From Vermamoeba vermiformis (Eukaryota): 64,000 bases of DNA. Shown here in pieces: positions 20,659 to 64,000 of this stretch (the first letter of the stretch is position 1; every line of letters starts with the position of its first letter). The notes under the pieces were generated by a model. It saw only the letters and a list, made by a program, of their open reading frames with translations. It had not been told where the DNA came from and did not search any database. The stretch spans positions 372,001 to 436,000 of the forward strand of contig JBEWZL010000209.1 in the NCBI GenBank assembly GCA_045837725.1, written 5' to 3'. The position numbers and the translations under genes are program-made.

Positions 20659-22428
20659 ATGGATAAGATATTAAAGGTAAAGTGGCATATCAATACTAAA
20701 CTTGCTAATCTATTACTCGAGGTTTGTCTCTTGGGTAGATGCGGTGTTGGCAAATCCAGCTTTTTACGCCGACTCACGAAAGGATCTTACAGCCAATTGG
20801 AGCAACCAACTGTCGGAGTAGACGTGAGTACTATATTTCTAGTATAGCAAAATAATCCTGCTTTAGTTTAAGGCTGTAAATACTCATTACGAGGGAAATG
20901 AAATTAAAGTTCATTTATGGGACACTACGGGCAATTGGAGGTAAATAACATGTAAAAGCAAATCACGATTATAACAATGATTTTTCCGTAGATTTACCGA
21001 AATTGTCGAATTGCATGTAAGCGGCGCAGATGGAATTCTATTCTTTGTCGATGTAACGGATCCGTCTTCGTTGCATGATCTTCAAGCTAGATGGGTGCCT
21101 ATGGTACAAAAGATGGCACCTGATATGCCGAGACATCGACAAGTCATAATTGGTCTGCGAACTGACTTGAAAAAACAAGTTAACGAAATTTCATGTCGCG
21201 CAGCAGAAAAATTCGCGGCGAACTTAGGAATGCCTTACATTGAAGCTAGTGCCTTAAAAAACATTAACATAAAGGATTCCTTCGCGCTCTTGGTCGCGAA
21301 TATGTATGAATACTCACCGTATGTCACAAACCGAATCTGATCCTTTTTTTCGATAGGAACTCAAAAACGCCAATCTATCACCTGGCGCCAAGTATTACTA
21401 ACAATAAGAATACTTGCATAGGTACGACGACGTATTACCATTTCTATCGAACTAACGTCTCATAGAAATTCCGATGGATGAAATCTCTATTATTTCAAAA
21501 CTTGGCGATGGAAATTACGGCGAAGTTTTTCGCGCTGAGTGGTGTGGCCTTGAAATCGTACTTAAAAAATTCACAGTGGACACCGATATGGAAGAAGTTA
21601 ATAAGTCAACGTAAGATCCAAAACTCTTACCGAACCAATTCTTACTTGTATTTATAGACTGTTGTTACACAACCATATTGTACGAGCAATGGGCATAGCA
21701 CGAGACGCCAAGACGAATGAAATCATGCTGATCATGGAATTCATGCAGCACGGCTCACTCGAAGACTTGCTCTATCCGAAACATCCAACATGTCAAAAAG
21801 TGATACTCGAGTGCCAAGACGTCATTCAGATAGCTTTGGATATCGCGACAGGATTGAAATATCTTCACTCGCAAAGCCCGAAAATAATCCATCGAGGCTT
21901 AAGTAGCGCAACTATTCTGGTAAGTCACCTACTGTGCTGTCAGATATAACGCACTAACGCTTTGTAGCTCGATAAACACAGACGAGCTAAAATTGCCAAC
22001 TTTGGAAGTATGAAAGTTCACAGCGCGAACTCTGCTGCCACAGCTGTGACCGATGAACCAGGATCTATTGCGCCTGAAGTACGAGCTGAAGAAGAATTCA
22101 ACGAGAAAGCGGATATCTATTCGTAAGTCATTATGATGAAGTATATTACCTATTCTTATTATTGTATTTTAGCTTGGGAGCGCTGTTGTTTGAAATGTTG
22201 ACCAGCAGCAGATTGCCGGCACTGGATGCAAAAAGCAGATCCAGAAGGATTAAGCAAAACATCACCGACAAAGATTTTCAGCGCTTGATACTGAACTGCT
22301 GCAAGAAAGATTCGACGCGCAGACCGAGCATTGAACGCTGCATTGACGCTTTGCACAAAATGCAAAGAAAAAATACCACTATTGCTCTCAGCAATAACGA
22401 GGAAGAACCACCGTTGATTGAACACTAG
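20659..22428 (+). CDS. Rab/Rho-like small GTPase fused to a TKL-type pseudokinase
   Basis: GRCGVGKS, WDTTG, GLRTDL and EASA are spliced in frame to LGDGNYGEVF, IVLKK, HRGLSSATIL, KIANFG, APE, KADIYSLG. Confidence 0.8.
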
Positions 22429-39690: not shown

Positions 39691-43155
<3,465 letters not shown>

Positions 43156-44036
43156 TTTGGTGTTCGATTCGTTCAAAAAAGATGAAAAATAACAATATAT
43201 CAAGAAGATTCGATCGCTGTCAGCTGCTAGAAATATTGTTTCGAAATTCTGTGACGTGTGAGTCGATTCCCGAAATCACATCCAAGAAACAAATCTTCGG
43301 CTTTTATTTTTTGATAGATACGCAGCTACCAACAATGATTATATGTCATTAATGTTGGATGTTAAGCACGAGAGTTTCAGACGTAAATTTGCAGCTGGAT
43401 TTCAAAAACCGAAAAGTTAACGACATCCGAGAGTCACCAAACCAAGTTATAATGATACCAATATGAAGCATAAAATTAGAGGTAATTTTTACCAAAAGAG
43501 ATTCTGTTTTGATTCGTGATTTTGAAAGTTACTCGCTCTACGTGTTATAAATTTCAGCGGAATACAATTGTTATGGTCATATTCTGATAATAATGCGTAA
43601 TAGTAATTTATATCCTTAATTTCGAGATGGTCATTTGTCAAATAAACAGACCTAGGTTGCGGATCTAACATCCCTTAAACACTCCAAAACTGCTCACAAA
43701 TTACCCAATCCGAAATTAATTGCTTATAACCGAACTATCTTTAATTATGCATATTAATGACCGTTATAATTGCCAATTGGCAGGTCGACTTAAACGGATG
43801 GATCCGGCTACAAAATCTTTCCGTACAAGGTACCTAATAATCAGCGGATGTAATTTTATCAATTGTATTCCAATCTTACGAAACATTGCAAAGAGACTAA
43901 TTGCAGTGTTCAAACTGATGTAGCAGCACCAATTGTTCGAAATAGCTCGCAAAGAGCCAACTGTCCGTTCACCTAGAAAGCAATTTTTATTTACAATATC
44001 AATTTGTTACGCGCTTAGCATCTTATCCGACTAATA

Positions 44037-46719
44037 TTAATACCCAAACGGTAAAATCGACGCTACAAAGTACGAAATAACTCCGCTGTGGATCAGTGCT
44101 ATTTCTACGGGACCGAATCGTTGCGCGAAGATAGCTGGGATAGTTATGATCGATATGAAGAGGTAGTAGGCCACGAGAGGGAACAAAAATAGTACAATGA
44201 ACGATAAGGCTCCAAAAATACGAGCTTGAGCGCCTGGTACAAAAAAAAAGAAAATTAATTTCGAAGAAAAACTGCGGTTAAAATTGCCTGTACGTACCAG
44301 CAACGGATATGACTACTATCAATAGCAATACCACGAATGCCCATAATCTACTGCCAATTATTTCAAAGGCCACACGGATCTTGAATCTAAACGATTCCAT
44401 GTTGACGTTAGATTTCTCCTCCCAGGCTTGCCAGCTGTAAAATCGAACAATCGCCACTTCATAGACCCAGCAGAAGAACATGGGGATCCATAAGATTACC
44501 ATAATCAGGTATCTGCGGTACAGATCCGAATCCAGTACGTTGAGCGATTTGAATAGTGGTGTTCCAAATCCGAACATCCAAGGCACGTGATAGAGAATAG
44601 CATTCATCACTAAAGATGGAAATAATTAGTTGATTAAACCTCGCTACTCAGTAGTCAATCAAAATACACTTTCAAACTTCACTTTTGATCTGGATCCGGA
44701 CCAAAAATTGCTGCAGAGTTACAAAGACTTACTTGTCAACCAAACAATGAGAATAGCGAATACCACCATAGTACTTTTGGCAGTTGACTGCGCGAATGGA
44801 GCTTTGATGGCTTCTTTGAACGACGATACCAAACAAACGCGCCAGTAGTACAAAAAGAACACGATCATCGCAAAGAAAAATGCGCCCCAAAGAAGAGCAT
44901 AGAATCGCACGGGCAATGGAATGAAGTTGGTAACGAGACCTGCCAAGAAGCATCCAATCCATAGTAAGTTGTGAATGACCCACCAGTACGGTCTGTATTT
45001 GAACTTGGACGAATCGAAATCTCCATCATAAACCTACGAATAACAACGTTATAATTACAAGGTTATGATTTTGTATCAAACAACAGCATCAAATTTCGAA
45101 TGACGTCACGTGTCAGCTGACACGTTCTGCAATGACACGTGTCAAAATGTCATCAGTTTTGAAATGGAAGGCAGTGTTATGTAGCCGCGTACCTTTTTGA
45201 AGAAGTGAGGGAATGAAAGTACCAGACCCAAGAGACCCCACGATATGAGACCAGCCAATCCGCTCAACATGGCCAATGGTTGAATGCCGTTATAGTTGAA
45301 ATCGTTGGCAGTGGCACCTGCTCCAAGACTAAGCAACATCCAGGTCACGGACTCTTCTATGATGCGGTGATCAATAGCTTCAAACACGTGGTTCGAAGGA
45401 CCTAAAAATATTCTTCGTGCGGAGTAACTTCCGAAATCTCCCGCAGTTGTGTCAAATTGAAGTTTTTCACCATCAGCGATGCCAGTAGTAATGTTTGAAA
45501 TCGCTGATTGAGCTGCGAGTGGATTGACCAATTCGTCATTTTTACCCACTGCAAGCAAGAAGTTTGGTGGGCTTGTCACGTTCCACGTATTACTATAGCA
45601 AAGTTTATTAGTGTCTCGTAATGGTATTATCGTAAAGGAAGTAATTTCAATGGAAAAATTTTAGCGTTTGGATCTACGACATTGCACGATTAAGAACTTA
45701 CTTGTTAAAGTTCAGATTGGCGCCAACAAGTACGACAGCCTTCAAGCCATCGGCTGGAGACAATCTACTTGCTATTTGCAATGCTGTACCTCCACCCATG
45801 GACCAGCCAATGATGCCAACTCGTGTCGGATCTACATCCGAAAACGTCGACAAATATTTTACTGCAGCAACACCATCATCACCAAGAGCTGCATTCGTTA
45901 ATAGTCCAGTACTAGCACCATGTCCTATAAATTAAAATGTCAATAAGCGTTCTATCATACTTCAAGCCTATTTTCTTCGCGTACCAGCTTGATCTATCGC
46001 CATCGCAAAAATTCCTGTTAAACAAAGATTATTTAGATACACTAACATCACTATTGATTAGACTATCAAAAGGTGCTATAATTAGTACACATTAAGTGGC
46101 ATGAGATTTCGGACTACGAACGGATCTTATTCGATTAAATATACTTAAATTGTCTGTAGCTTACCTGCATTAGCTAGTGCATGTACATATGACAGCATCC
46201 ATTCTTTAGAGGCCATAATACCTAACAACAACGTAAGAATTAAATTTACGTTGCGTAAAGCACGCGACTGCTTGTGAAACTAAAAAGATTCGACAATAAT
46301 GAAATATAGTAGTACCGTGATATATAACTACGCCTGGGAGCGTTCCGGGCGAATATTCGGTCGTTGGTCTGCCTATAACCGCTGCGATCTTGCGACCGCC
46401 TAATAAAGATTGTTAAATAAGAACAAAATGCGCATTTTCGCATATAATAATATTAATTGCACTGAATTAGAATATTTGACTCCAAAATAAATGCAAAAAA
46501 GTCATTTTTAATTTATTGTAACGGATTTGGCTATAAAAATGCACTTTACTGACCTGAATTAAATTCAACAAATTCATATTCGGTGCCGTAGCGTATCAAC
46601 CGATCATATATAACTGTGCAGGCGACGAATAGGCAAACAATTATGATTGCAGCAATCAGCCATCGTCGGTGGATGTTGGAGTCCCACGTCGCACGAAACA
46701 CCTCTTTAAATGCGCTCAT
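44037..46719 (-). CDS. Membrane-anchored alpha/beta-hydrolase with a multi-TM C-terminal domain
   Basis: N-terminal TM, PGVVIYHG, GHGAS, GIIGWSMGGG (nucleophile), GKNDE (acid), SNHVFE (His), then multiple TM helices. Confidence 0.82.
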
Positions 46720-47023
46720 ATGGTCCTCTACTTAAATAAGCGTTAAAAATGGCGTGCGAAACACACGCATTTTTGAGCACGTGCAGGGGCCAGCCACGTG
46801 GATTCCAAACGCGACAGAATGTGAATCACGCTTAAGTATCAGACCACAGCTAAACACTACCACAATTGATTTTTATGTATTTTAGATTATAACGGATAAG
46901 AGAATGTTAATACGCGGCACATAGGCAAGTGATTTTCAAACGAATCTAGTCTCAAAGTTAACTTCGCTTAGTTTTTATCAAATTTACAAAATAAACACAT
47001 AAATAATCTATTTACAATTTCCT

Positions 47024-49439
<2,416 letters not shown>

Positions 49440-50574
49440 GTTGCAGAATGATAGTGCTATGAACCAAATTAAAGTCAGATATTCCGATCCAGGAACGTTT
49501 TTCAAAGATCACACAATTTATTTTAATTGGATGAAAGCTAGAATTTGAATAGCTAAGAACCGCTAAGCACAATTTAACTTTCCCACATCAATAGCATTAT
49601 TCTAATTGAAAGAAAAATGTGTGCAGCAACGCTGGATTCGTTAGCTTACCACGTTAGCGATGAGTTGATAAGCCTAGAGCGCGTTAGGTTTTCTCAAAAA
49701 TGTACGGAAAATCTTTGCGCGAGTCGTGTTCGTCTCATTCAATTGCAATAAAAAATAACAGAGTATCTACAACTTTTGTACGATATTGTGCACCGCAATT
49801 TAATGAAAAATCGTACAAATTCCGGGACGCCGACTCCCGATTGTCAGACCGTTGACACAATGAGCTATGACAGTCGTACACTCGAATATTGCTTAGTAGC
49901 AGTCCAACTGCTGCGAAACGCTTCGTCGTCATGACAAAATGGCTTCGAATTTTCCAATTAAGGAAACTTTAGAATTTAACGCGATGTAATCCACGAATCC
50001 TTACAATTAAATTGCTGCCATATGGCATAATACAGTATTTATATCCTTTCTTGAGTGGCAATTACTTGTGTCAAAAGCTTGACAACAAAGCGGTCCGCGC
50101 AAATTAAAAATTATCTTATTGCATATTTAGAGCAACATAACTATGAAGCAGCGAGAATTTCGTTCTTATGAGTGACTGATCGCTTGACAGCTGAATCCGC
50201 AAAGCCTGGTTTGGGCTGTTTCAGTTCGAAAGAGTGTTAAATGGGCAGATTTCGATGGTGATAGCTAGCTGTATATTATTGGTAAGAGGAAAAACTTTAA
50301 CAGGATGAGGCTTCTGTTTGGTTGACTTATTATTCAATCGATTATTTAATTGAAATAATTTAAGATATTAACCAAAATTTCGGACTTTAACGTCATAAAA
50401 ACAAATCAAACTATTTATCCGATGCTATATAACAAATTGACATTTTAAATATAATACACGTACTTAGCTGATGCTATTTGCCAGATCCAGTTTGGCCTGA
50501 AAGTCAGCGTTCAGAAAACCAACTTTTCCTCTTATTCAGATAAGGTATTGGATACGATCTATTTGATCGTCAAA

Positions 50575-52152
50575 TTAATAATATTGACGCAGTTTCTCTT
50601 TCGATAGTTGGATGTAGTTAGTCATTGCGTCCGAACTGTTCATCCCTTTCAATGAATTCCAACTATTCCACTTCTTCCTTGCTTCGAACATGAACCACCA
50701 AGGCTTGGCTATAATGTTAAGGATGTAAGAAGCTGAGGAAAATTTTGCGCGTGCACGCTGGATGTGGTAACTTACTCGTCGAGTTATCGCCGTCGGTAGC
50801 TTGCTTATAATAACCGTAGAGTGCCAACAACGTGCTTTGATCAATAGAGGTCACGTATGAGGCAACGCGCGACGTCCAACGTAGAAATTTTTCCTGGATA
50901 TCGAAGCTCAGCAACGGTGTCGGAACACTGAAAAAAGCTACCAAATCATATACTAACCTCTAGTAGTACATCAACATTGTTGTTCCTTCGCTGTGTGAAT
51001 GGTTTAATGGGCGTGGTGACTTTCAGCTCTATTAGAGTGATGCGATCGTGTGGCTTCGGAACACTGGCAAACGGTCGAGTGCCGTCTAATACGAAGTTTG
51101 AATATAGAATCTCACTCACTTGGACACCACCGATCTTGATGCCTGCTGCCTATAATTATCATCGTAAGTCATATGCAAATTATAGCAAGAAAATTAGCAC
51201 GTGCGCAAGTTGGCCGGATCCGACGTACCTGTGAGAAGGCACCAGTTGGCTCTAATAATATCTTTAGGTCTTCGGGTGTCTTTGTTTTGCCGTTAAACAA
51301 GCAAAAGTGGCAAATCATGTTCAACAGGCCTCTGTTGTAGTAGAGCGGATGTACCGCAGCTGCAATAATTTCAACTACTTCTAGTGGTCTCGTCGGTTTC
51401 TTTCTCGTGGCAAAGTACTGTCCGTGCAACTGCTCGATCAAGTGGAATATTGGCAACAATACTGCGCATTCTTTCTCGAGGAACTGATCCAACTGACCAT
51501 CGTGGGTATGAAAGTAGTCAACGGGTATAATTGCTGCCACAACTTCGCCAGCTGAACAAAAAGTACGTTAAATCAGTTTGATACGATACGAGGTATTAAT
51601 ACACGGGTCAATGAACTGATTTATCCAACGGTTTTTTTTTGGATTCAGGATCTTACTTCGGACGTCTTTCACTCCTATGCTTAGTCCATTATTTGAATAG
51701 GTATCTACAACAAAATTGATGAATTTCATGGACGCCTTTTGACCTTCCAATCCTAGATGCGTGTTGAGCGGCTCGAGCGCGAATGCAGGTCCAAAAAACT
51801 CTTTCAAGTCTTGCTTGTCCGCGCTTGTTATTCTAAAACACCTAAAATACTCGGTTTCGTGGAGGAGGTTCTCTGGCGCGACGTTGGCTCGCTCAACTCG
51901 ATCTTCAATCCGCCTGAGTACATCCAACACCTGCTTCTTTTCTACGTGCGATGGAATTTCGGAAATATCAATTAATGCCGACTCTTCGACGACGTGGACT
52001 AATCTACGGCCTTGGCACTCAAGAAAGAGATTTCCTTGTAGCTGATGCGCTACGCTTTCCAACACGATCTCCAAATGTCGTTCATGCTGAGGAGCCAATT
52101 TGACAGAGATTTGTTTCTTGTGCCAGTCGAGAGTAAGTTTTATTGTTTCCAT
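50575..52152 (-). CDS. AANAT-like GNAT N-acyltransferase fused to a C-terminal acyl-CoA-binding (ACBP) domain
   Basis: FALEPLNTHLG, AAVHPLYYNRGL, EPTGAFSQ..KIG...ILYSNFVLDGTRPF, spliced in frame to LLALYGYYKQATDGD...KPWWF..ARKKWNSWNSLKGM...AMTNYI. Confidence 0.8.
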
Positions 52153-52898
52153 AATTATTATCGATGTAACAATGAGAATCTTGCGCCGAGTAAACGTAGT
52201 CCCCTCGAAATTTCATTGGTCTCATCCCCGAAAGTACCTCCATAATTACACAAGTCACGATCGTAATCGCCCCAAAGATTCTGTGTTCACAATTTACTAA
52301 CGAATATGTTATCAGTACAAAGGAAAATTCATTTGCTGCCAAATCCGTTACTTTGACGAATTCAAAATCATGTCCTGCTAAGATGTCCTGATGAAAACTT
52401 ACATGGAGCTCATGCGAAGAGTATTGTTGGTGCTATGCTCGTCTGCAAATGTACTCAAGGTAAGCCTAAGTCTTAGTTTGTTGGAGGAAACACGGATGTG
52501 ACCCTGTTGTGACAATTCGCACGTAACTTCTTTTATTTACTCGCGCAAATGTGCTTTTATTATAAATTTCATCATGACAGATGTCAAATACTGCGAGACT
52601 GTTAACGCGAATCCAGTTTTAGTCGCACTTTTTGTTTGTTTTGGAAATACCGACCCGCTTTAATACGCTCTGTTGTGTTCTATTACGCCAGTATAATCAT
52701 ATTAGTGTTACATTCTCGCTGTATTTACTGTAAGAACATTGAAATTTCATTGGATCCGCAGCTATTACGTGTGATTCCAATTAAGGGACCAAAATCTAGT
52801 CACTTTGGAAATTCTCATGTCGATGGTAAAAGTTACCAATTTTCGAACCGAACAGGTCAATCTAAATTTAAATTCGTAACGAAGTACAACAACAAATC

Positions 52899-54845
52899 AT
52901 GAGCGGATTGGATCTTGAGTTATCGAATGGGACTGGATCAACTTTTGTTGACTTGACTTCTTCAGCAAGCAACTTTATTCAAGATTACATCTTCGGTCTA
53001 AAATCCGAACCCATTTCTAGCAGCCATGATTTGAAGTACCCAAACGCTGATGAATTGCATGCGCTCGCTCAGCCCTTGGAAGCCAACAGCACGATTAACG
53101 AACGCGGCACCACTATGCAAGATATATTAGCTCATTTAGGCCAAGTAATGCAGACAGGTATTACTAAGAGCAGCCATGCTGGTCATGTTGCGTTTATCAA
53201 CGGGTACGTACAACACCGGATTTACATACTCCTAAGAAAAAAATCGTAATCTTTCAATTTCGAGTTAAATTTTATTTCCATCTGACATATGTAACTAGCG
53301 GAGTAATTTTGATAGGTTACTAATCATGTACGTTGATTATAGGGGTGGTATACTTGCCGGAGCAATTGGTGCAATGTTAGCCAGTGCTTTGCACGTTCAA
53401 ACGGGACTATGGGCCGAGTGTCCATCCATGATTGCACTCGAAGAGAGTGTCTTGCAGTGGATGGCTTCAATGATTGGCTACCCTTCTACTTCGAGTCAAG
53501 GTATCATCACGTCAGGCGGATCTACCACCTTGTTGACGGCTATGATATGTGCTCGACACCGATACTTGCCCGTGGAACTCATGGAAAAGGGCGTCATGTA
53601 CATCACTGAACAGTCTAACTGCTCCGTGCACAAATCTGCAAAGCTACTCGGACTTTCGAAACATCAGATCCGGGTAATCTCCGTCAACGAAGAGTAAGTC
53701 CCCGAACTCATAGTTAATACTTGGGTATATACTAACGTTGTCTATTAGTCATCGAATGAACCTTGAAGAGCTCGTGAACACTATTGAGAAAGATCTTGGT
53801 GAAGGTCTCAAACCCTTCATGATTGTTGGCAACGCTGGAACTACCGACACAGGTGAGATATACGTCTACTATTAGTAATATATATAGTACTAACCATCTC
53901 TTAGGTAAAATCGATGACCTTGCGGGTATCAACACTATTGCTTGTAAATACGACCTCTGGTTCCACGTGGATGCGTGCTACGGCGGATTTTTTGCGTAAG
54001 TCAAAAAACAACTTATTTCTTATTGAGAGCATATAATAACCTTCCCTATAGTCTTACTGAACGAGGTAAAGAGTTACTCAAAGGAATTGAGCTTGCGGAT
54101 TCGGTAAGTTGAAAAAGCGGTTGGATGTTGTTTCTTGAAGACTAACATTAGCTCTTAATAGGTATCGCTCGACCCTCATAAGTCATTGTTCATGCCTCTT
54201 GGCTACGGTGTCTTGCTCGTCAAAGAAGGTTCTGCGTTGCGTGAAGCGATGTCACGTCCTGGTCCCAGCCCATATTTGAGCAACATTTACCACATTACAA
54301 ACTACTGCGACTTGTCGATGGAACTTTCAAGACCTAACAGAGGCCTTCCAGTAAGTATACCAAGACAACTAGGTCTCGTGACAGCGGATCTAACCTAGTT
54401 TTGTTTGTAGCTTTGGTTCGCTTTGAAGCTTCACGGAGTCAATGCTTTTCGAACGGCGTTGCAAGAGAAGTTAGACTTGGCTAAAATGATGTGCGAACAG
54501 ATCTCGCAGATTGAAAATGTCGAAGTCATTAGCGAGCCTGAACTCACGACATTCACCTTCCGATACTACGACTCGGATCTTGGCCACTCAACACTTAATA
54601 TGCTCAATAAGACGTTAGTATCGCTCATCAATAAGCAGCAAGTCATCTTCGTCAATTCAACGATCATCAAGCAAAAGAACGTGATCCGCATCTGCGTCAT
54701 GAACCACCGAACACATATGCAGGACATTACTAATGGTGTTGAAGCTATTCGCAACGCTATTCAAGAAGTTCAATTGCTCGCTAGAAATAAGCACAGTGAT
54801 ATTCACGCGCGAGTCGACGATGCCAAGTTGGCTCACTCAGTTTGA
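52899..54845 (+). CDS. PLP-dependent group II aromatic amino-acid decarboxylase-like enzyme (bacterial-type)
   Basis: GIITSGGS, VGNAGTTDTG.IDDL, WFHVDACYGGF, DPHK (PLP Lys), ELSRPNRGLPLWFALKLHG, IRICVMNHRT. Confidence 0.92.
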
Positions 54846-54925
54846 AATTTTGATTTGTAACTGTGGTAGTTTATTTTGTACTTGTATTATTATTGTATTA
54901 TAAATGGTTAATTTTGTGTAGACAG

Positions 54926-55920
54926 TTAGAGTTGAACTTCCATTGCTTTTCTGAGATGCAAAATTGTTAGACCTTGATCCACGGATGCAGCGTTGACTGC
55001 GAAGCTAGGAACCATTCCCTATGCTCACATTAGTATTGGGTATAACTACTAGCAGCTATACGTACCTTAAGATCAGCTTGCACGACGTAGGTAACCTTGC
55101 ACTGGTTGTTGTCGGCCTTTTCAATGACATAACCACCAACTACGACAAATCTGTCAGCATCGCACTGGTAATTGCATAATCTTACTTTTAACATCACCGC
55201 GAACATAGCTCTGGTCAACTGGAGCGGCGGGGTGTTCAATGTTCGTGCAAACTGTTAATGCGAGATCTGCAGAAACAATGCGCTTGTGCTGAATAGATAC
55301 AAAATCCCTATTTGACAATGGAGTAGGCTGCAACAGAAAGGGTTAGCAGGTTTCTACGGAATTCTTTCATATTTAGCAGAGATTTTACCATTTTGTTTTG
55401 TTGGAGCACTACTTTGAAAGTATCGTTGATGACTTCAATATTTTTAATGGCAATCAAGCTCGGATCGAGAATATTTTGATATTCAAGGCTATACGCTCGC
55501 TTTAAAATATCTTCGATGGATCCCTAAACAGATCACTATTAGATCTAACGTTTCCCAGGTTAATATGACATGTGAACGTACGTTAACCAATCCTTGACCT
55601 CTTACTAAGTGGCTGCTATCATCTTTAGGGACTTTTAGTTAGTTTCGGACTACGAAGGCGTCAGATCGGATTCGCTTACATGTTTTCTTTTTAGAGACTT
55701 CTACTCCATCTTTCGTTTTGACTTGCGACCACCTAATTTTCAAAAATTAAAGACATTTTTTACTACAGAACTGAAAATGAACGCACCCCTCGTTAGAATG
55801 AGCGGCATCCAGCATAACTTGGACTTTTTGTTCGATAATTTGAGCGTAATTTTCTCTTGTTGCCATTGTAATTGTGTTATTGACTTCGATTTGATCGATA
55901 TCAGTGATCTTCGTATCCAT
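54926..55920 (-). CDS. START-domain lipid-binding protein (copy 2)
   Basis: W..VKTKDGVEVSK, PTPLSNRDFV, GGYVIE..CKVTYVVQADLKGMVP. Confidence 0.85.
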
Positions 55921-56051
55921 TTAAATGTTCCACCACGCGGACCGCATTTTGAAATTTCCTCCTTCGCATTGCGAACTTGTACACTCTGAGAATGTCGAAC
56001 TGTTATGGTGAACGGTAATATTTACTAAACTACAATACGAGGTAAGAAGGC

Positions 56052-57000
56052 TTAAGCGCTCTCCATGGCTTTTCGGAGATTGAGAACCGTGAGTCCTTGA
56101 TCTACAGATGCAGTGTTTGTAACGAAAGTAGGAACGGATCCCTAAGATCAAAGGTTATTAATAATATAATAAAATATGCGTATAAATATTGCCAAATTTA
56201 CCTTTAAGCTAACTTGAACAACGTAAGTAACTTTGCATTGAGTATCGTCAACTCGTTCGATGACATAGCCTCCAACTAAAGCAAGGTAAATACTTATCTT
56301 ATTGTATTAATACGAGTAGTACCACTTACGCATTACTTCACCACGAACGTAGTTCTTATCGACTGGAACTGAAGCGTGAGTAGTGGATGTGGCGCAAGTT
56401 ACGGCCAGATCCTTCGAAACAAGTTGTTTGTGTTGAAAAGTAACAAAATCTCGATCAGTTAATGGCGAGGGCTGGCATATGAATGAGTAAGTCTTATAGG
56501 CAATAAATTGTGGATCCGCGTACCATTTTGTTCTGTTGATAGACGACCTTGTAGCAATCTTCAAACAATTCAACTTGCTTGAACGAGGTTAAAGTAGGGT
56601 CAATAATCTTTTGATTTTCATCGCCAGCAAGTTTATTGAGGATGGACTCTACTGTCCCCTAAAAAGTCCCAAGTTAAAGTATCGTTCGATCCAGGATAGC
56701 TATGATAAAAGTTACCGGAACTAATCCTTGGCCGCGCACGAGAATATGGCTGCTATCCTCTATTTCCAAGTTGAACGTCAGATTCAGTCGACGATCTCGA
56801 TCAAAACTTTACCTGTTTTTCGCTTAGAAACATCGACACCGTCCTTCGTCTTAACATGGCTCCATCTTTTAAATAGTAAGTATACAATTATAATCATCTT
56901 TTGTTCAGAGCTCTTACCCGTCGTTGGATTGAGCGTAAGAGAGCACGAGCTTCTTTTTTTCTTCAGCGATTTGTTTGCAGTTGGCTTTAGTGATTTCCAT
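56052..57000 (-). CDS. START-domain lipid-binding protein (copy 1)
   Basis: WSHVKTKDGVDV, PSPLTDRDFV, YVRGE, GGYVIE..CKVTYVVQVSLKGSVP; own stop at 56052-56054. Confidence 0.88.
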
Positions 57001-57369
57001 TGTTACGTTGGTACTTATCGAATCTTAATAAGTGAGACTAAATATGGCTGAAGTGATGGGTGCAGATTTTCTGGTCACCTTGAAATTTACGCGGTCGAGG
57101 TGCATCGAAATTTCAAAGTCTTCCGGTCATTATTTCTCCTGCTGAGAAGACAACAACCACAAATTTGGTTAAAGCTTGCGAGATGAGTGACTACTAAATG
57201 TAATTAGTTGACATGGCAGAAAAAAGAAGGCACTAGAGCCAGATCCACGATAAATTCACATTGAGACACAACTTTCCGTCTCGTTGGTGGTATCATTGAA
57301 ATTTATAATTTTATAAAGAGATAGCTCGAAAAAGTAAGTTCTATTTACGGTCAAACTTAACGAAGTGCA

Positions 57370-59288
57370 ATGCTCGTGTTAATTTGGATTGTTTTAGCTG
57401 CCATCCTCTTGTTGGCCTATTTTCAGCAATATAATGCCGTAAGTTAATATAAGCACATTTTTAAATATTTTTAGAGAATTTTTAGACCTAGTTCAAGCTA
57501 GATGTGCACACGATCTGATCACAATTTTACTTACCTAACGTTCAGCGCCGTCAGATACCTACTATGCCCAAAATATGGCCATACATATCTTTAATAAAGA
57601 ATAAGGCATCCATGCGTCTGTTCTCGCAGTCTCTGATGAAAGAATATAATGACGCGGTCAGCTCGCAAATTTTTTGCAAATCCAGCGCTAACCAGATCTT
57701 TAGGTGTATATGGAATGGCTTGGCGGTACTACTTGCTTCCTTTTCAAACCGCAATGGATCAAACAGGTCCTTTCTGCATCGAATACTCGCGCTTTAATGA
57801 AACCAGTCGCATCCGAAGGACTCGGTAGGTTAAAAACTCACCCTTTATATATTCAACTAAATTAACATATTATATTGCAGGTATTAATGGTCTTGCTATG
57901 GTTACTGGAACGACTTGGGCGGTGCATAGAAAGCTGATCGCGCCAGCGCTTCAAGCTCGTTCACTGAAACCTTTCGAACCTATCATCGAGAGCAAAGTCC
58001 ACGTGCTGGTGAAGAGAATCGCTAATGAAATCGAAATTTCCGGAAAAGTTAGCATTAAAGAAGATCTGTACGCACTATTCAAAAAACTCAGCCTTGATAC
58101 TGTCGGAAGGATTGCTTCTGGAGAATCAATCGACTGTAAGTTATTTATATATATTTATTATTTATTAATATGATTTTTTTAGCGTTATATGATCGTCCTG
58201 ATAGTGTAGCGTTGCAAAAAGAACTCGACTTTTTGTTCGAAGAAGTTTTGAACAGATCCGTCGCTCCCATTCCTTACTGGCGTATAATGCCGTTCTTACC
58301 GTCAGCTAGACGTGTAAAATCAGGTAAATTTATTGCATAATCTTATTTATAGTCGGATCTAATTTCTGACGGATCAGTTCATAAACAACTTTGGACTATT
58401 GCCGAGCGAGCTGTCGAGCGCAAAAAAAGAGAAACTACATGCGAGGGCAAGTCTATTTTAGATATGTTATGGGAGGCTCATCTCGACAATCCTTTGGAGT
58501 TTCCTGAATCCGAAGTCGTCGAGGAAACTTTATCACTACTGTAAGCTCTTTATTATCGTTTACAAGATCGTATTATTAATGCCATATATTAGGCTTGGTG
58601 GAGCTGAGACAATTGCCAATGTTCTCGCTGCAGTGTTTTACTGTCTGGGCCAGCATCCGGAGGCCGTTACAAAGATCCGCAAAGAAATCGATGAAAAGTC
58701 TCAAGGAAAGGCTGTGCGCGTAGAAGATATTAAGCAGTATACGTACATTGATTGGGTGCTTAAAGAAGTGCTGAGAATGTATCCTGTTGCGTTTGTTGTG
58801 GATCGCATTGCGACCGAAGATATTCAACTTGGCCCGCACACAATACCTAAGGATGTAAGTAGCGTATAATACATGACGGTTATTTAATCTAACATAATGT
58901 TACTCATAGACCAAAATACTGATGCCTCCTGTCGCGATCCATTACAATCCGGAGGTTTTTTCGGATCCGTGGACTTTTAATCCAGAAAGATTTGCTAACG
59001 GCGAGCCCCAATTAGGATACTTGCCATTTGGAGGAGGGTAAGACCTATTTGATAAGAATTTACTGTCTCTAAAGCAAGATCTAACGTACGCGGTTTTTGG
59101 TTAGGCTGAGAATTTGTGTTGGCAAGACATTAAGCATGCAAATTATAATAGTTGCGATTATAGAACTCGTTAGAAGATTCAATATCTCGCACGTAACTGA
59201 AGTATCTGAAATTATGAACTCCGCCGAAGCGTTCAACCTTCGACCGCCTAATGCGAAGCTTGATATGATTGTAGAAAATGTATATTAA
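57370..59288 (+). CDS. Cytochrome P450
   Basis: N-terminal anchor, WAVHRKLI, GGAET, EVLRMYP, FNPERF, PFGGGLRICVG. Confidence 0.93.
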
Positions 59289-59552
59289 TGTAGTATAGAT
59301 TTTAAACGCGATAGATGTGTAATTTATGCATTTTAATACCACATTTTAAATTCGTCCAATGCAAGCCTTGAACTTCCCTAAGTAAGGACCGAGTTAGTTC
59401 AAATAATATTAGTAATGTTATATTATATATTAGTGGGACAGAGTGTTCATCGGCAGGAATATTTCTCAATTCTTTGAGGTCTCCTTATTTGACTTTTGGA
59501 TCACAAGACGGAACCTGAAATGTTTTCCACGTCCATTTCGTTCATTTCAACG

Positions 59553-61806
59553 ATGTATTCTCAGAGTACAGCACCTCAGAAGATTCACGTTCGGAATCTG
59601 TTCAAGATCTTCGTTCCTTTACGAGGTGAGAACAATTTCAGCGTCAAACTGAACACAACGCCGGTGTTTGGGGTTGTAGTCCACGATAAAAATGATGCAA
59701 ATATATCTTATGAATATCAGCTTCATATGCTTCTTCGAGAGCGCAGTTACACGCAAGGAATTGAAACTGAATCTGAAGCGGTTGGATGCTTCAGTTGGGC
59801 CAAAAGAAATCCTGTATTAGTGCAAACAGAACAAAATAGTAATAATATCGAAGGAATACTGCTTAGAGTGAAGGTAAATCATGGGATCTTCGATTTTCGA
59901 AAGACAAGTCGACAGTTGATCAGAATCGTTGTCAACCTGAAAGTTGGAAACCAATATGTTAGGCAAGGCACGAGTACTTTATGCAAATTATTGCCGAAAA
60001 AGCGTAAAGCAGACAAAACCAGCGAGAACACCGAAGGTAAAATCCTAAAATAATTTTTATTTATTTTAACTACCTTATTTTCCCAAATTGAACGACGGTA
60101 TACTCTAGAAACCACCAGGTGTTTCAATATTTAAAGCTGATAATTATTATTGTGTAGCGGAGATTGCGATCTCGTGGCCGGATGGGCAAACTCTCGACGC
60201 CCAACAATATCTTCCAGTGGCCCAATCAGACATTAATAATATTAGTACACATCATTTCGATTCAACTATCGAAGTTGATGAAAGCCCTGAAGTTCGTCAG
60301 TTCAGCATGACGAATCTGTTCGAACAACCTTCGTCAATGCTAATGCAAGAAGAAGTCGAAACCACTGATATTTTTACCACGCCGTAAGCATTTTACGTTG
60401 TTTCTCGATAAAACTGATCGTATGGCGACGTAGAGCAAGCGAAGAAAATGAACAGCACGATGAGCAATACATGGTACTCTACAACGGCAATGCAGAGGTT
60501 GTGGGCAACTTCAGAGCACTCAACTTCTACAAGGCATCTGATATCAATATTAAAGAGGACGTCAGATTGCTCATGGAAGGTATGTGGATAGACATTGTGA
60601 CACGCGTCTTTTTTGACACTTTGTGTTGACGCGCTGCTTATGGGCTCGTTTGTATATACTGTAGAGCATTGCTAACGGGTAGTCCTTATAGATAATAACC
60701 CACGTGACGTCCTTCTGAAGATCTCAGGAGTGTCGTACAAGTTCAAACCAGGCACAACACACTCCACTCAACGACGATTCGTTGGTTACATTGCACAACA
60801 AATCGAAAGTGTTGTTCCTGAAGCAGTTCAGTTGATCGATGGCATTCTTCATGTGGACTACGAGTCATTGATTCCCTATCTCAGTGAATCGATCAAGCAA
60901 AACTTCACTGACATTAAAGGACTCAAGTCAGACACGCAGAAGCTCGAAGCACTCTTGACCAATCTCTACGAGGAGTTTATACAAGGTGAAAGCAAAGACA
61001 AGTCAAAAGTTACATTCAAATCTAAGCTACGACCAGAAAAGTCACGTGTCAACGCAATCACAGGATTGGTCAAATCCAAGTGGCAGTGGTTTGCAGGATT
61101 GTTATTTTTAGCATTAATAGGCATCACTGTTGCGCTTAGTGTGGGTTTGGTTGCTAACTTCAGAGATCAACCAGACAAACCTGAACATGCCCCAAGTTTA
61201 CCAGATTACGGGAGTCCAGAAGGCTATTTGGAAGGCGTGGCAAGAACAGCATTAAAGACATTTTACGAATCAATGAATGGAGATAACTGGATAATCAAGA
61301 CGAACTGGATGAGCAATACTTCGGTGTGCGAATGGTACGGTGTCACATGTGAAGGACCATTTGAAGAGGAGCATGTCACGGAAGTTCGTCTATCGAATAA
61401 TAATTTGACAGGAGGATTGCTAGGACAGTATTTAATGTACAAAGTAGCGCCGTTGAAAGTTCTCGACTTGAGCAAAAACAACATTTTGTTCAGTATTCAC
61501 CAATTGTCACCGTACATCACGCACTTGAACTTGTCAGAGAATCAAATATCAACTGACATCAAAGTGTTCAATCAATTGACGTACATTAGGTCACTCAATT
61601 TGGCCCACACTCGCGTTTACGGAGATTTTCAGCTGTTACCGAGTCAATTAGTCCGATTGAAAGAGCTCAATTTGTCGCACACTTCTATAACGACTATTGC
61701 GCGGATGGATGGCGAGTACGAGATTGAAGTGTGCGATTGGCACGGGACTACTTTGCACTGTCCGATTCCTGCTTGGATCGGCAAGTGTGGCGGAACCTGC
61801 GTTTAA
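59553..61806 (+). CDS. MYRF-like membrane-tethered factor: N-terminal domain with NLS, Peptidase S74/ICA autocleavage domain, coiled coil, TM, LRR ectodomain (copy 1)
   Basis: Four in-frame exons: ...LLPKKRK; GNAEVVGNFRALNFYKA-SDINIKE; GYIAQQIESVVPEAV..VDYESLIPYLSESIKQ; TM; ALKTFYESMNGDNW...CEWYGVTC; LxLxxN repeats. An in-frame ATG also exists at 59520. Confidence 0.85.
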
Positions 61807-62150
61807 CATTATTGTAACCTTTTGAATAAATAATTCTGTATTCTTAGACACCTTATGCATATATTGGCCTTTCCTTCGGATCCGCTGGCTCAACAATGTG
61901 ATTCGAAACATGTTTCGTAAGGTTCTAAGAATGGGATGCAGATGTCGATTACTTAACCTGCGATAAATTGAGGTTGGAATGGACCACTAGAACTTAAGCC
62001 GCGAGAACAATGTTAGTATAACGAATAGAATCAAAAAATCTGCCAGCTCGCAAAATTGAAAAGTCTCGTAACAGGACTGGGATCCGTTATGTGAATCAAA
62101 TGTCCTGGCCCATCGTTAAGTTCACGAAAAAAAATCCTTTCGAAATCAAA

Positions 62151-64000
62151 ATGTATTCGCAGACAACAGCACTGCAGAAAATTCACGTTCGAAATCTGTT
62201 CAAGATCTTCGTTCCTTTACGAGGCGAGAACAATTTCAGCGTCAAACTCAATACCACACCAGTATTTGGCGTTGTAATATACGACAAAAATGATGCAAAT
62301 ATATCTTATGAATATCAGCTTCATATGCTTCTTCGAGAACGCAATTATGCGCAAGGAATCGAAACTGAATCTGAAGCGGTTGGATGCTTCAGCTGGGCCA
62401 AAAGAAATGCCGTATTATTTCAAACAGAACAAAATACAAATAATATCGAAGGAGTTATGCTCCGAGTGAAGGTAAATCATGGGATCTTCGATTTTAGAAA
62501 GACAAGTCGGCAGTTGATCAGAATTGTTGTGAACTTGCACGTTGCAAACCAATACGTCCATCAAGGCACGAGTACTTTATGCAAATTATTGCCGAAAAAA
62601 CGAAAGGCAGATAAAAGCAGCGAAAATACCGAAGGTAAGTAATTTAAAATTAACTAAATTCAAATAAAATTGCGTAGGTTACAATTAATTTGATTCATAT
62701 CTATATTATTCGAATAATAATTATTAGAAATTAATTTTCTTTGTTCAGCTGAAGTTGCGATCACGTGGCCCACGGATGAAACTCCGGAAAGCGAGCAACA
62801 CTATCCTGCAATCGATCAACCAGCCAATAATATAAGTCCATATTCCGACTCGGCTATTGAAGTCTACGAAAGTCCTGAAGTTAGTCCGATCCGCATGCCA
62901 AATCTGTTCGCACAACCTTCCTCGTCCTCGATGCTTATTCAAGAAGTAGAAATGTCTAATGTTTTTACCCAGCCGTAAGTATTATAGAATAGCATACTTA
63001 GAGGCATAATAGCTTTTAAAATATGAAACGCAGAGCGAACGACAATAATAGCGAGTGGATGGTGCTGTACAACGGCAATGCGGAAGTCGTGGGCAACTTC
63101 AGAGCACTCAACTTCTACAAGGCATCTGATATCAATATTAAAGAAGACATTAGACTGCTCATGGAAGGTTCGTTGCATTTTTAAGAACTTTTAGACGCGT
63201 GTCTTTTTGACACTTGGGTTTGACATGCGTGCACTTGTGCGCGTTAATTTTACCGTCAGAACAGAGCTAACGCGTAGTACTATTAGATCATAATCCTCGC
63301 GAGGTGATTTTGAAGATCGATGGCGTTGAATACAAGTTCAAAGACAATGTTCAGCACTCAACAAACAAACGATTCGTTGGTTACATTGCACAACAAATCG
63401 AAAGTGTTGTTCCTGAAGCAGTTCAGTTGATCGATGGCATTCTTCATGTGGACTACGAGTCATTGATTCCTTACCTCAGTGAATCGATCAAACAGAACTT
63501 CACTGACATTCAAGGCATCAAATCAGATACTCAGAAACTTGAAGCAGTGTTGAACAATCTTTACGAACAGTTCACCACAGGCGAAAGCAATGCAAAGTCA
63601 AAGACGAAGTCAAATACAAAGTCACGACCGATGAAGGAAAAGTCACGTGTCAATTCCAACACTTTGACAGGATTGGTCAAATCCAAGTGGCAGGTGTTCG
63701 CAGGATTATTGTTATTAGCGGTGATTGGCGTCACTATCGCACTTAGTATTGGCTTAGCATCAAAGTTTAGAGAACAACAGCCGGACGAAGCTAAACCGGT
63801 TCCAAGTACCTACCCGCATTACGAACCGCCAGACGCCTACGGCGAAACAGACGCAAGAACTGCATTAAAATTGTTCTATCAAACAATGAACGGAGATAAC
63901 TGGATAATTAAGACGAATTGGATGAGCAATACTTCGGTGTGTGAATGGTACGGTGTTACTTGTGACGGACCATTTGAATACGAACGCGTTACAGAAGTTC
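62151..64000 (+). CDS. MYRF-like ICA-TM-LRR protein (copy 2, runs off the window)
   Basis: Tandem paralog with the same intron positions, near-identical N-terminal and ICA domains, a TM and the LRR N-cap. Confidence 0.85.

Follow-up and report, generated by a model that had tools for sequence, protein, structure and literature searches.

The locus and its gene models

A stretch of 64,000 nucleotides of DNA from Vermamoeba vermiformis (contig JBEWZL010000209.1, positions 372,001 to 436,000 of the forward strand; hereafter the window, with positions counted from its first letter) was analysed for a run of seven genes lying within positions 44037-59288. In the middle of this run, a gene in which a GNAT acyltransferase domain is fused to an acyl-CoA-binding domain (ACBP) stands head-to-head with a gene for a group II pyridoxal phosphate (PLP)-dependent decarboxylase. 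An initial annotation, made from the letters alone, had listed seven consecutive genes related to small molecules or lipids, and the genes were recovered at those places, with Pfam support for the hydrolase, both cytochromes P450, the ACBP, the decarboxylase and two START genes. The head-to-head pair, beside P450 and lipid-carrier genes, suggests a small fatty-acid amide pathway, and the functional unit is most likely smaller than the seven genes.

The DNA of the window is eukaryotic, with a GC content of ~40% and short GT..AG introns that have GTAAGT donors and CTAAC-like branch sites. Gene models were built with an exon-chaining script and the spliced joints of a set of contigs (X5), and domain evidence was scored per exon. 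The X5 contigs carry the label of another organism, are guessed to derive from RNA and are ~96-97% identical to the window, as estimated from difference counts. They align to the region with the introns removed: 13 of the 15 listed joints skip 52-65 nt and the other two skip 107 and 139 nt, while plain GT..AG ends (CT..AC for minus-strand genes) are seen at 12 of the 15, and two of the remaining three become GT..AG when shifted. Spliced X5 contigs, which indicate the presence of a transcript and not its level, lie on four of the seven genes (GNAT-ACBP, decarboxylase, START2 and P450b) and also on the next gene downstream. Three raw RNA-seq runs whose species label is that of the DNA (X21-X23) gave 8, 15 and 16 reads over positions 42001-62000, which fit only in part and are 95-99% identical; either the species labels and strains of these runs and of X5 may not correspond, or the region may be nearly silent in the X21-X23 samples.

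The central features of the locus are as follows.

50575-52152, minus strand: GNAT-ACBP fusion gene, spliced model of ~421 aa with RNA joints 51551|51659 and 50706|50777
52152-51657, 51551-51229, 51149-50958, 50893-50776 and 50708-50575, minus strand: exons of the GNAT-ACBP gene
52153-52898: divergent intergenic region between GNAT-ACBP and the decarboxylase, 746 bp between the two start codons, head-to-head
52783-52807: conserved 25-nt element, ~92-116 nt upstream of the decarboxylase ATG, unique in the window
52899-54845, plus strand: group II PLP-dependent decarboxylase, 508 aa in 7 exons, all 6 introns confirmed by X5

An alternative genetic code was considered for the in-frame TAA between the open reading frames (ORFs) 51568-52212 and 51169-51567 of the fusion gene, and was rejected because this TAA sits inside a 105-nt intron that is spliced out in X5.

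An acyltransferase-ACBP fusion opposite a decarboxylase

The predicted fusion protein has three parts, namely an α/β N-domain (residues ~1-100), a GNAT domain resembling the insect arylalkylamine N-acyltransferases (iAANATs; residues ~100-325) and a C-terminal ACBP. The N-domain, modelled with AF2 as β-β-α-β-β-α at a pLDDT of 68-87, matched no Pfam family and only generic α/β proteins in a VIA wide search (Z<=6.1); a shorter type of paralog, represented by P0009 and P0018, is built without it. Two exons carry the ACBP (PF00887), with profile positions 1-42 on exon 50717-50959 (30.4 bits, E 4.4e-7) and positions 40-75 on exon 50578-50850 (44.3 bits, E 2e-11). Each of the two is separately above the 28.3-bit cut-off and an RNA-supported intron joins them, so that the domain is complete. 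A YKQA-type motif is visible in its translation.

The GNAT exons of the window matched nothing in Pfam (none at E<=1), in NCBIfam or in the PDB with phmmer. Profiles of the exon family returned nothing from the PDB, or terminase noise at E ~1; longer homologous proteins were sought with the GNAT exon or alignment A3 and none was found, and the ESM Atlas gave no useful information on this exon (recognition 1511). A HMMER search of 1.84 billion representatives, with the intron read through and X placed at the stop, yielded only 6 exon-like fragments, all of the same family, and a profile search of 5.8 billion proteins yielded 18 proteins, again all of this family. No relatives of the fusion were found in prokaryote genomes and viral contigs, and the GNAT family was encountered only in a narrow set of eukaryote-like contigs. 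Being so divergent, with no Pfam match and 18 relatives among 5.8 billion proteins, the family is missed by standard annotation and would be overlooked in genome mining.

The fold was approached through P0009, a spliced relative of 234 aa that is 46% identical and spans the whole GNAT domain (aligned to GNAT exons 1-2 of the window in alignment A4, and to exon 3 by eye). Its best phmmer match in the PDB was mosquito aaNAT2 (4fd5), marginal at E 0.046 and with TGAFSQ, Y.DY and PH shared, followed by RimI at E 0.7; the family profile matched the GNAT Eis2 weakly at motif A (E 1.2). When P0009 was modelled by AF2 with the family alignment, pLDDT values of 83-95 were obtained for residues 11-150 and of 75-78 up to residue 180, the last ~47 residues falling below 50. 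Foldseek returned 40 PDB matches for this model at E<=1e-3, headed by the Ebony C-domain, Drosophila Dat, Tribolium AANAT, PBCV-1 A654L and AgmNAT (E 1.9e-6 to 3e-5). In VIA-align, the first 20 rows were all insect-type AANAT-like proteins (Z 14.1-16.3, 174-198 residues aligned) and generic GNATs followed from Z 12.7. The tetrapeptide EPLN is invariant in the family (alignment A3), and the window reads F-A-L-E-P-L-N-T-H-L-G, with Leu where the iAANAT motif has Asp. In iAANATs, the Glu of this 'DEPLN' motif acts as the general base, and some insect members take long-chain acyl-CoA (PMC6070697). The 'GNAT' part is thus supported, by way of a structural model, as an iAANAT-like acyltransferase domain, and the annotated fusion of an insect AANAT-like GNAT to an ACBP holds on the P0009 fold, the EPLN motif and the ACBP on its two exons.

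The length of the acyl chain bears on what such a fusion might do. Most characterised iAANAT-like enzymes are acetyltransferases (PMC6070697), and Dat, AgmNAT and polyamine N-acetyltransferases are among the fold matches obtained here. The pair might then carry out short-chain acetylation, by which a biogenic amine would be inactivated or converted (tryptamine or serotonin, for instance, being N-acetylated), with a P450 hydroxylase as in the plant melatonin route and with the ACBP serving a regulatory purpose or tethering the protein to a membrane or an organelle. Of the four enzyme types in the plant melatonin route, three (a decarboxylase, a P450 and a GNAT) are found together here, but no O-methyltransferase is present. 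ACBPs, moreover, prefer C12-C22 acyl-CoA over acetyl-CoA, and in the related loci described below the ACBP is fused in all 5 that reach that far. We therefore hold acetylation to be very improbable, and retain the transfer of a longer acyl chain as the putative activity of the fusion.

The decarboxylase was recognised by Pfam as Pyridoxal_deC (PF00282) at 8.8e-13 and 7.7e-5, its exon 2 scoring 48.2 bits against a cut-off of 27 bits. It has the motifs HVDACYGG and SLDPHK, the latter with the PLP-lysine and aligning, as S-L-D-P-H-K, with S-W-D-A-H-K of PDB entry 4obu. This entry, which we take to be the tryptophan decarboxylase of Ruminococcus gnavus, was the best PDB match on both stretches tested (4.6e-12 and 8.6e-11), and on exon 2 the next matches were plant 4HPAA synthase and tyrosine and DOPA decarboxylases. 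To this extent the comparison agrees with the aromatic amino-acid decarboxylase-like enzyme of the initial annotation; the NCBIfam result does not, since the best model there is the L-2,4-diaminobutyrate (DABA) decarboxylase RhbB (3.9e-14 on exon 2, the last exon being matched too). NCBIfam holds prokaryotic models only, and the decarboxylase scores far under their equivalog cut-offs (52 vs 900 bits). Glutamate, DABA and lysine decarboxylases all come within ~10-15 bits of its best match, and the closest GNAT folds do not narrow the amine class, since arylalkylamine, polyamine, agmatine and histamine enzymes are all among the VIA-align neighbours of P0009. An aromatic substrate is the leading guess from these comparisons and only a guess, because 4obu leads in the PDB while NCBIfam gives DABA and the GNAT neighbours are mixed.

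The same matches could be accommodated by a real pathway of the core pair in which the amine is aliphatic. Here, a diamine or polyamine precursor formed from diaminobutyrate, lysine, ornithine or a similar amino acid would be converted to N-acyl di- or polyamines, by the logic of the decarboxylase and acyltransferase steps of hydroxamate siderophore synthesis or of polyamine and agmatine N-acylation. The RhbB matches on exon 2 and the last exon point this way, as do the second PDB match on exons 6-7, the desferrioxamine-pathway decarboxylase 5o5c (4.6e-6), and the presence of the PBCV-1 polyamine acetyltransferase (Z 16.3), an agmatine N-acetyltransferase (Z 15.5) and a spermine N-acetyltransferase among the GNAT neighbours. 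On exons 6-7, however, 5o5c reached 29.8 bits and 4obu 45.3 bits, with tyrosine and DOPA decarboxylases coming next, and the lead of 4obu on both stretches, the plant enzymes behind it on exon 2 and the low NCBIfam scores all speak against an aliphatic amine; nor was a siderophore synthetase or N-hydroxylase seen in the window. We regard this variant as improbable.

Conservation of the pair and the extent of the unit

A metagenome scan with the exon-2 alignment of the GNAT gave six loci. Their DNA is 86-99.9% identical from one locus to another, and their exon-2 protein shares 73-76% identity with that of the window. The 9-kb contig L002 has START, decarboxylase, GNAT-ACBP and P450a in the order and orientation of the window (48-89% amino-acid identity per piece), its P450a ortholog adjoining GNAT-ACBP (48-75% per piece). 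In L003, a sequence identical at 10 of 10 positions to the first residues of the decarboxylase (E 0.45) stands head-to-head with GNAT-ACBP at the contig end. L004 (1-6772) and L005 (1-4265) differ in that their GNAT-ACBP is apparently intact and the decarboxylase is reduced to a 71-residue relic (312 bp, from exon 2); no P450a was found within 3.6 kb, and the neighbours of GNAT-ACBP on either side are ABC-transporter-like ORFs in which Walker A and signature motifs are present. An acyltransferase gene of this kind can therefore be kept when no decarboxylase stands next to it. Because the pair recurs in L002, in L003 and as a relic in L004 and L005, the two genes seem to have moved or been duplicated together, and the comparison suggests that the head-to-head pair travelled as a unit and that the decarboxylase then decayed in L004 and L005. 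The ACBP lies downstream of the GNAT in five of the six loci, and the sixth contig ends before it.

The 746 bp between the start codons agree with the ~750 bp of the initial annotation, and are presumed to be a shared promoter. The 25-nt element within them is identical at 24 of 25 positions in L002 and L003 and at 20 of 21 in L004, at a similar offset, while the remaining intergenic DNA is unalignable (match E 2.7e-7; the highest score among 20 shuffles was 24.3 bits). This element could be a cis-regulatory site or part of the 5' untranslated region. The palindrome GAAATTTC, a GAAnnTTC-type sequence that presumably represents a heat-shock-element-like core, occurs 12 times in the window against 3.4 expected, with sites at 52207, 52741, 55951 and 57107 among others and several between divergent cluster genes. 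It was rejected as a cluster-specific signal, being enriched window-wide (5 of 12 sites in the cluster region and 7 elsewhere), and is probably a general promoter motif of the organism.

These data have to be weighed against a neutral neighbourhood, in which the genes are adjacent by descent and chance and share no pathway, the decarboxylase acting in general amine or polyamine metabolism and the GNAT-ACBP on an unrelated acceptor; P450s, START proteins and hydrolases come from large families, concerned with lipids and xenobiotics, whose genes frequently neighbour one another. The functional categories that unite the seven genes are broad and were picked after the fact. All seven are indeed small-molecule or lipid genes, but the contrast drawn in the initial annotation with a housekeeping remainder is blurred by a DUF1295 steroid-reductase-like gene, a DAO-type FAD oxidoreductase, a serine carboxypeptidase (Peptidase_S10) and a Macro domain gene elsewhere in the window, the first three of which can be counted as further small-molecule genes. 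The other genomic context of GNAT-ACBP in L004 and L005 with its decayed decarboxylase, the three of seven genes that have no X5 transcript contigs and the window-wide spread of the GAAATTTC sites all fit a neutral arrangement. So does the abundance of small syntenic blocks in related amoebae: most orthologs of two Dictyostelium species lie in such blocks, which average 2.8 genes and reach 10 at the longest (PMC3188802), and a four-gene block alone is therefore no proof of selection. Neutrality accounts less readily for an amine-making and an amine-acylating enzyme, a biochemically matched pair, being head-to-head, for the recurrence of that pairing in L002 and L003 and as a relic in L004 and L005, and for the 25-nt intergenic element conserved amid unalignable DNA. 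On balance we consider it somewhat unlikely, while leaving it a substantial share of the probability, and rate the two-gene pathway slightly higher.

The other five genes of the run flank this pair on both sides.

44037-46719, minus strand: membrane α/β-hydrolase, ~560 aa; 5' exons of the model uncertain
47024-49439, minus strand: P450a; 5' end and last intron of the model approximate
54926 to ~55866/55920 (start codon 55920 or 55866), minus strand: START1, START-only protein, all exons detectable
56052-57000, minus strand: START2, START-only lipid-binding protein, 206 aa in 7 exons, five introns with X5 joints
57370-59288, plus strand: P450b, ~453 aa, four X5 joints

The hydrolase has an N-terminal transmembrane helix, a GWSMGG nucleophile elbow and a long C-terminal region with several transmembrane segments. 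Its exon 45698-45931 matched the Pfam families DLH, PETase, Peptidase_S9 and Abhydrolase (best E 4.7e-7), and its C-terminal transmembrane exons matched no Pfam family. P450a was matched by p450 (PF00067) on two exons (25.9 and 20.5 bits; 5.3e-6 and 2.3e-4) and has the heme-Cys motif (FxxGxRxCxG), and a phmmer search of the PDB with its 152-aa exon found nothing. P450b was assigned to the same family (29.9 and 73 bits; 3.3e-7 and 2.8e-20), with the heme-Cys motif FGGGLRICVG and an I-K helix exon whose best PDB matches are CYP3A7/3A4 (2.8e-12), then CYP102 and CYP46A1. That the two P450s are dissimilar, as first noted, is borne out by the 27-35% identity of P450b to the P450a region of L002. 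P450b and START2 are head-to-head with 370 bp between them. Both START genes match PF01852 on collinear exons, START1 over profile positions 102-148 (20.2 bits) and 150-177 (20.4 bits) and START2 over 103-148 (20.8 bits) and 149-175 (14.5 bits). Each exon falls below the 22-bit cut-off, and the rough sums of 40.6 (START1) and 35.3 (START2) exceed it, although these are not whole-protein scores. START1 is covered along its whole length by tblastn of START2, and the START of L002 is nearer to START2 (58-89%) than to START1 (46-55%); START1 thus appears, from these comparisons, to be a local, lineage-specific tandem copy of START2.

The initial annotation had joined all seven genes in one cluster for N-acyl arylalkylamide signals, in which the two P450s would tailor the product, the two START proteins would transport it and the hydrolase would turn it over. 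The seven genes are real and contiguous, four of them are syntenic in L002, and X5 shows transcripts of P450b and START2 besides those of the core pair; in animals, moreover, N-acyl dopamine and N-acyl serotonin are described as being epoxidised by P450s (bioRxiv 10.1101/2020.05.05.079624). Nothing, however, links the hydrolase, P450b or START1 to the others. The synteny looked for in relatives was found for P450a, GNAT-ACBP, the decarboxylase and a START in L002 but did not extend further: on the far side of P450a, at the place expected for the beginning of the hydrolase, L002 has another 660 bp that match nothing in the window, so that the linkage of the hydrolase is unsupported, and L004 and L005 have no P450a and only the relic of the decarboxylase. 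The contigs of the relatives end before the P450b side. X5 depth is zero for the hydrolase and for the greater part of START1 (55341-56007), and near zero (0.14-0.57 in two bins) for P450a, which is the syntenic one of the two P450s; START1 is apparently a lineage-specific copy. We find the full seven-gene scheme quite improbable, slightly more so than a pathway with an aliphatic amine, and its cluster and its arylalkylamide product are both to be taken as putative. P450a and one START are conserved neighbours by sequence comparison and possibly have a functional role; the hydrolase, START1 and P450b are adjacent genes and at most putative members of the pathway.

Other genes lie around the run. 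A Kelch β-propeller and EGF-domain gene (attractin-like; 41177-42839) directly upstream of the hydrolase is unrelated to the cluster hypothesis. On the other side, 59493-61803 and 62022-63996 are tandem duplicate genes, each with a family-less N-terminal region followed by Peptidase_S74 (the intramolecular chaperone of endosialidase), LRRNT and LRR repeats; the stretches 'IHVRNLF' and 'GYIAQQIESVVPEAVQLIDGILHV' recur in the two copies, and X5 contigs cover the first. At 20981-22425, Ras-family GTPase and protein kinase domains are found on adjoining plus-strand ORFs, which may perhaps be a single Roco/LRRK-like gene. A tRNA scan of the window found none.

A putative fatty-acid amide pathway and its known counterparts

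The reading that we tentatively prefer, with a confidence that stays somewhat below an even chance, is that of a two-gene core in which the decarboxylase forms an amine and the GNAT-ACBP N-acylates this amine, drawing on acyl-CoA bound to the ACBP of the fusion. An amino acid would be turned into the primary amine by the group II PLP decarboxylase, and the divergently transcribed fusion protein would acylate that amine on its nitrogen. The fused ACBP would capture a medium- or long-chain acyl-CoA and deliver it to the active site of the GNAT, with the conserved Glu of EPLN as the putative general base. The expected product would be an N-fatty-acyl amine, i.e. a fatty-acid amide, which P450a may oxidise and a START protein may carry. 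Each catalytic step in this scheme is inferred, and so are the choice of substrate, the length of the acyl chain and what the neighbouring genes do.

Several observations weigh against this reading. The fold comparison was made on P0009 and not on the spliced protein of the window itself, and an AF2 model of the read-through of exon 1, intron and exon 2 from the window reached a mean pLDDT of 51, gave no Foldseek match at E<=1e-3 and, in VIA, gave only a weak Dat row at Z 5.4. Motif A of the GNAT is non-canonical (YxxGxL). To these are added the diaminobutyrate and desferrioxamine-type matches of the decarboxylase and the mixed amine classes of the GNAT neighbours, the uneven X5 coverage of the run, the relic decarboxylase, absent P450a and transporter-like flanks of L004 and L005, and the small syntenic blocks of Dictyostelium, all given above.

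Knowledge of the enzymes behind long-chain N-acyl amines (N-acyl dopamines, N-acyl serotonins and related fatty-acid amides, for instance) is incomplete even for insects and mammals. The fusion of an iAANAT-like domain to an ACBP is evidence of the Rosetta-stone type for a use of this fold family in fatty acylation, and the decarboxylase across the presumed shared promoter region is a candidate source of the amine. If the link is true, the pair would be a two-gene, easily expressed system for fatty-acid amides and an instance of metabolic gene clustering outside fungi and plants. Going further, the fusion might be a dedicated fatty-acid-amide synthase of a kind not described before, supplied with long-chain acyl-CoA by its ACBP, that, with the divergent decarboxylase, a conserved P450 and a START carrier, forms a conserved endocannabinoid-like N-acyl amine signal pathway in a microbial eukaryote. 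We think this unlikely; were it true, it would be an independent, compact solution to a biosynthetic step that is poorly defined in animals. If the link fails, a newly recognised, lineage-restricted GNAT-ACBP architecture would still stand. It is the combination of N-domain, iAANAT-like domain and ACBP that is newly recognised, iAANAT-like acyltransferases and eukaryotic metabolic gene clustering being already known. No title or abstract describing a GNAT/AANAT-ACBP fusion or such a protist cluster was found in a literature search of incomplete coverage.

Among known systems, the acyltransferase is closest to the iAANATs (Drosophila Dat/AANATA, AANATL2 and AgmNAT, Aedes aaNAT2/5b/7 and Tribolium AANAT), the C-terminal domain of Ebony and PBCV-1 A654L, with which P0009 has the same GNAT sub-fold over nearly its whole chain. 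The E-P-L-N of the DEPLN motif, the TGAFSQ segment and the C-terminal PH are held in common with the iAANATs. Identity in the fold alignments, however, is only 10-18%, no Pfam GNAT model is matched at E<=1, motif A reads YxxGxL in place of R/QxxGxG/A, and the protein described here has an additional ~100-aa N-terminal domain and a C-terminal ACBP. The decarboxylase resembles the group II PLP decarboxylases (4obu and the plant and animal aromatic enzymes) in its Pyridoxal_deC match and in the HVDAxYGG and DPHK motifs, and has a M-E-L-(S/T)-R-P-x-R-G-L loop in common with 4obu, but the similarity is low at 45-49 bits per stretch of 116 to 227 aa.

At the level of the locus, the closest parallels are the biosynthetic gene clusters of fungi and plants and the hydroxamate siderophore pathways. 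Like the former, the locus has a co-located and partly divergent decarboxylase, acyltransferase and P450s in an order that is partly kept in L002; unlike them, the window copy has no polyketide synthase, nonribosomal peptide synthetase or terpene synthase and neither a regulator nor a transporter specific to the cluster, synteny was seen for only four of its seven genes, and one type of related locus has lost the decarboxylase. The siderophore pathways (DesA/DesC, RhbB/RhbD) likewise proceed from a group II decarboxylase to an acyl-CoA-dependent N-acylation, which is here predicted, and RhbB and DesA-like models match the decarboxylase of the window. The locus differs from these pathways in that no N-hydroxylase or NIS synthetase was seen, the acyltransferase is iAANAT-like, and the genes are eukaryotic and contain introns.

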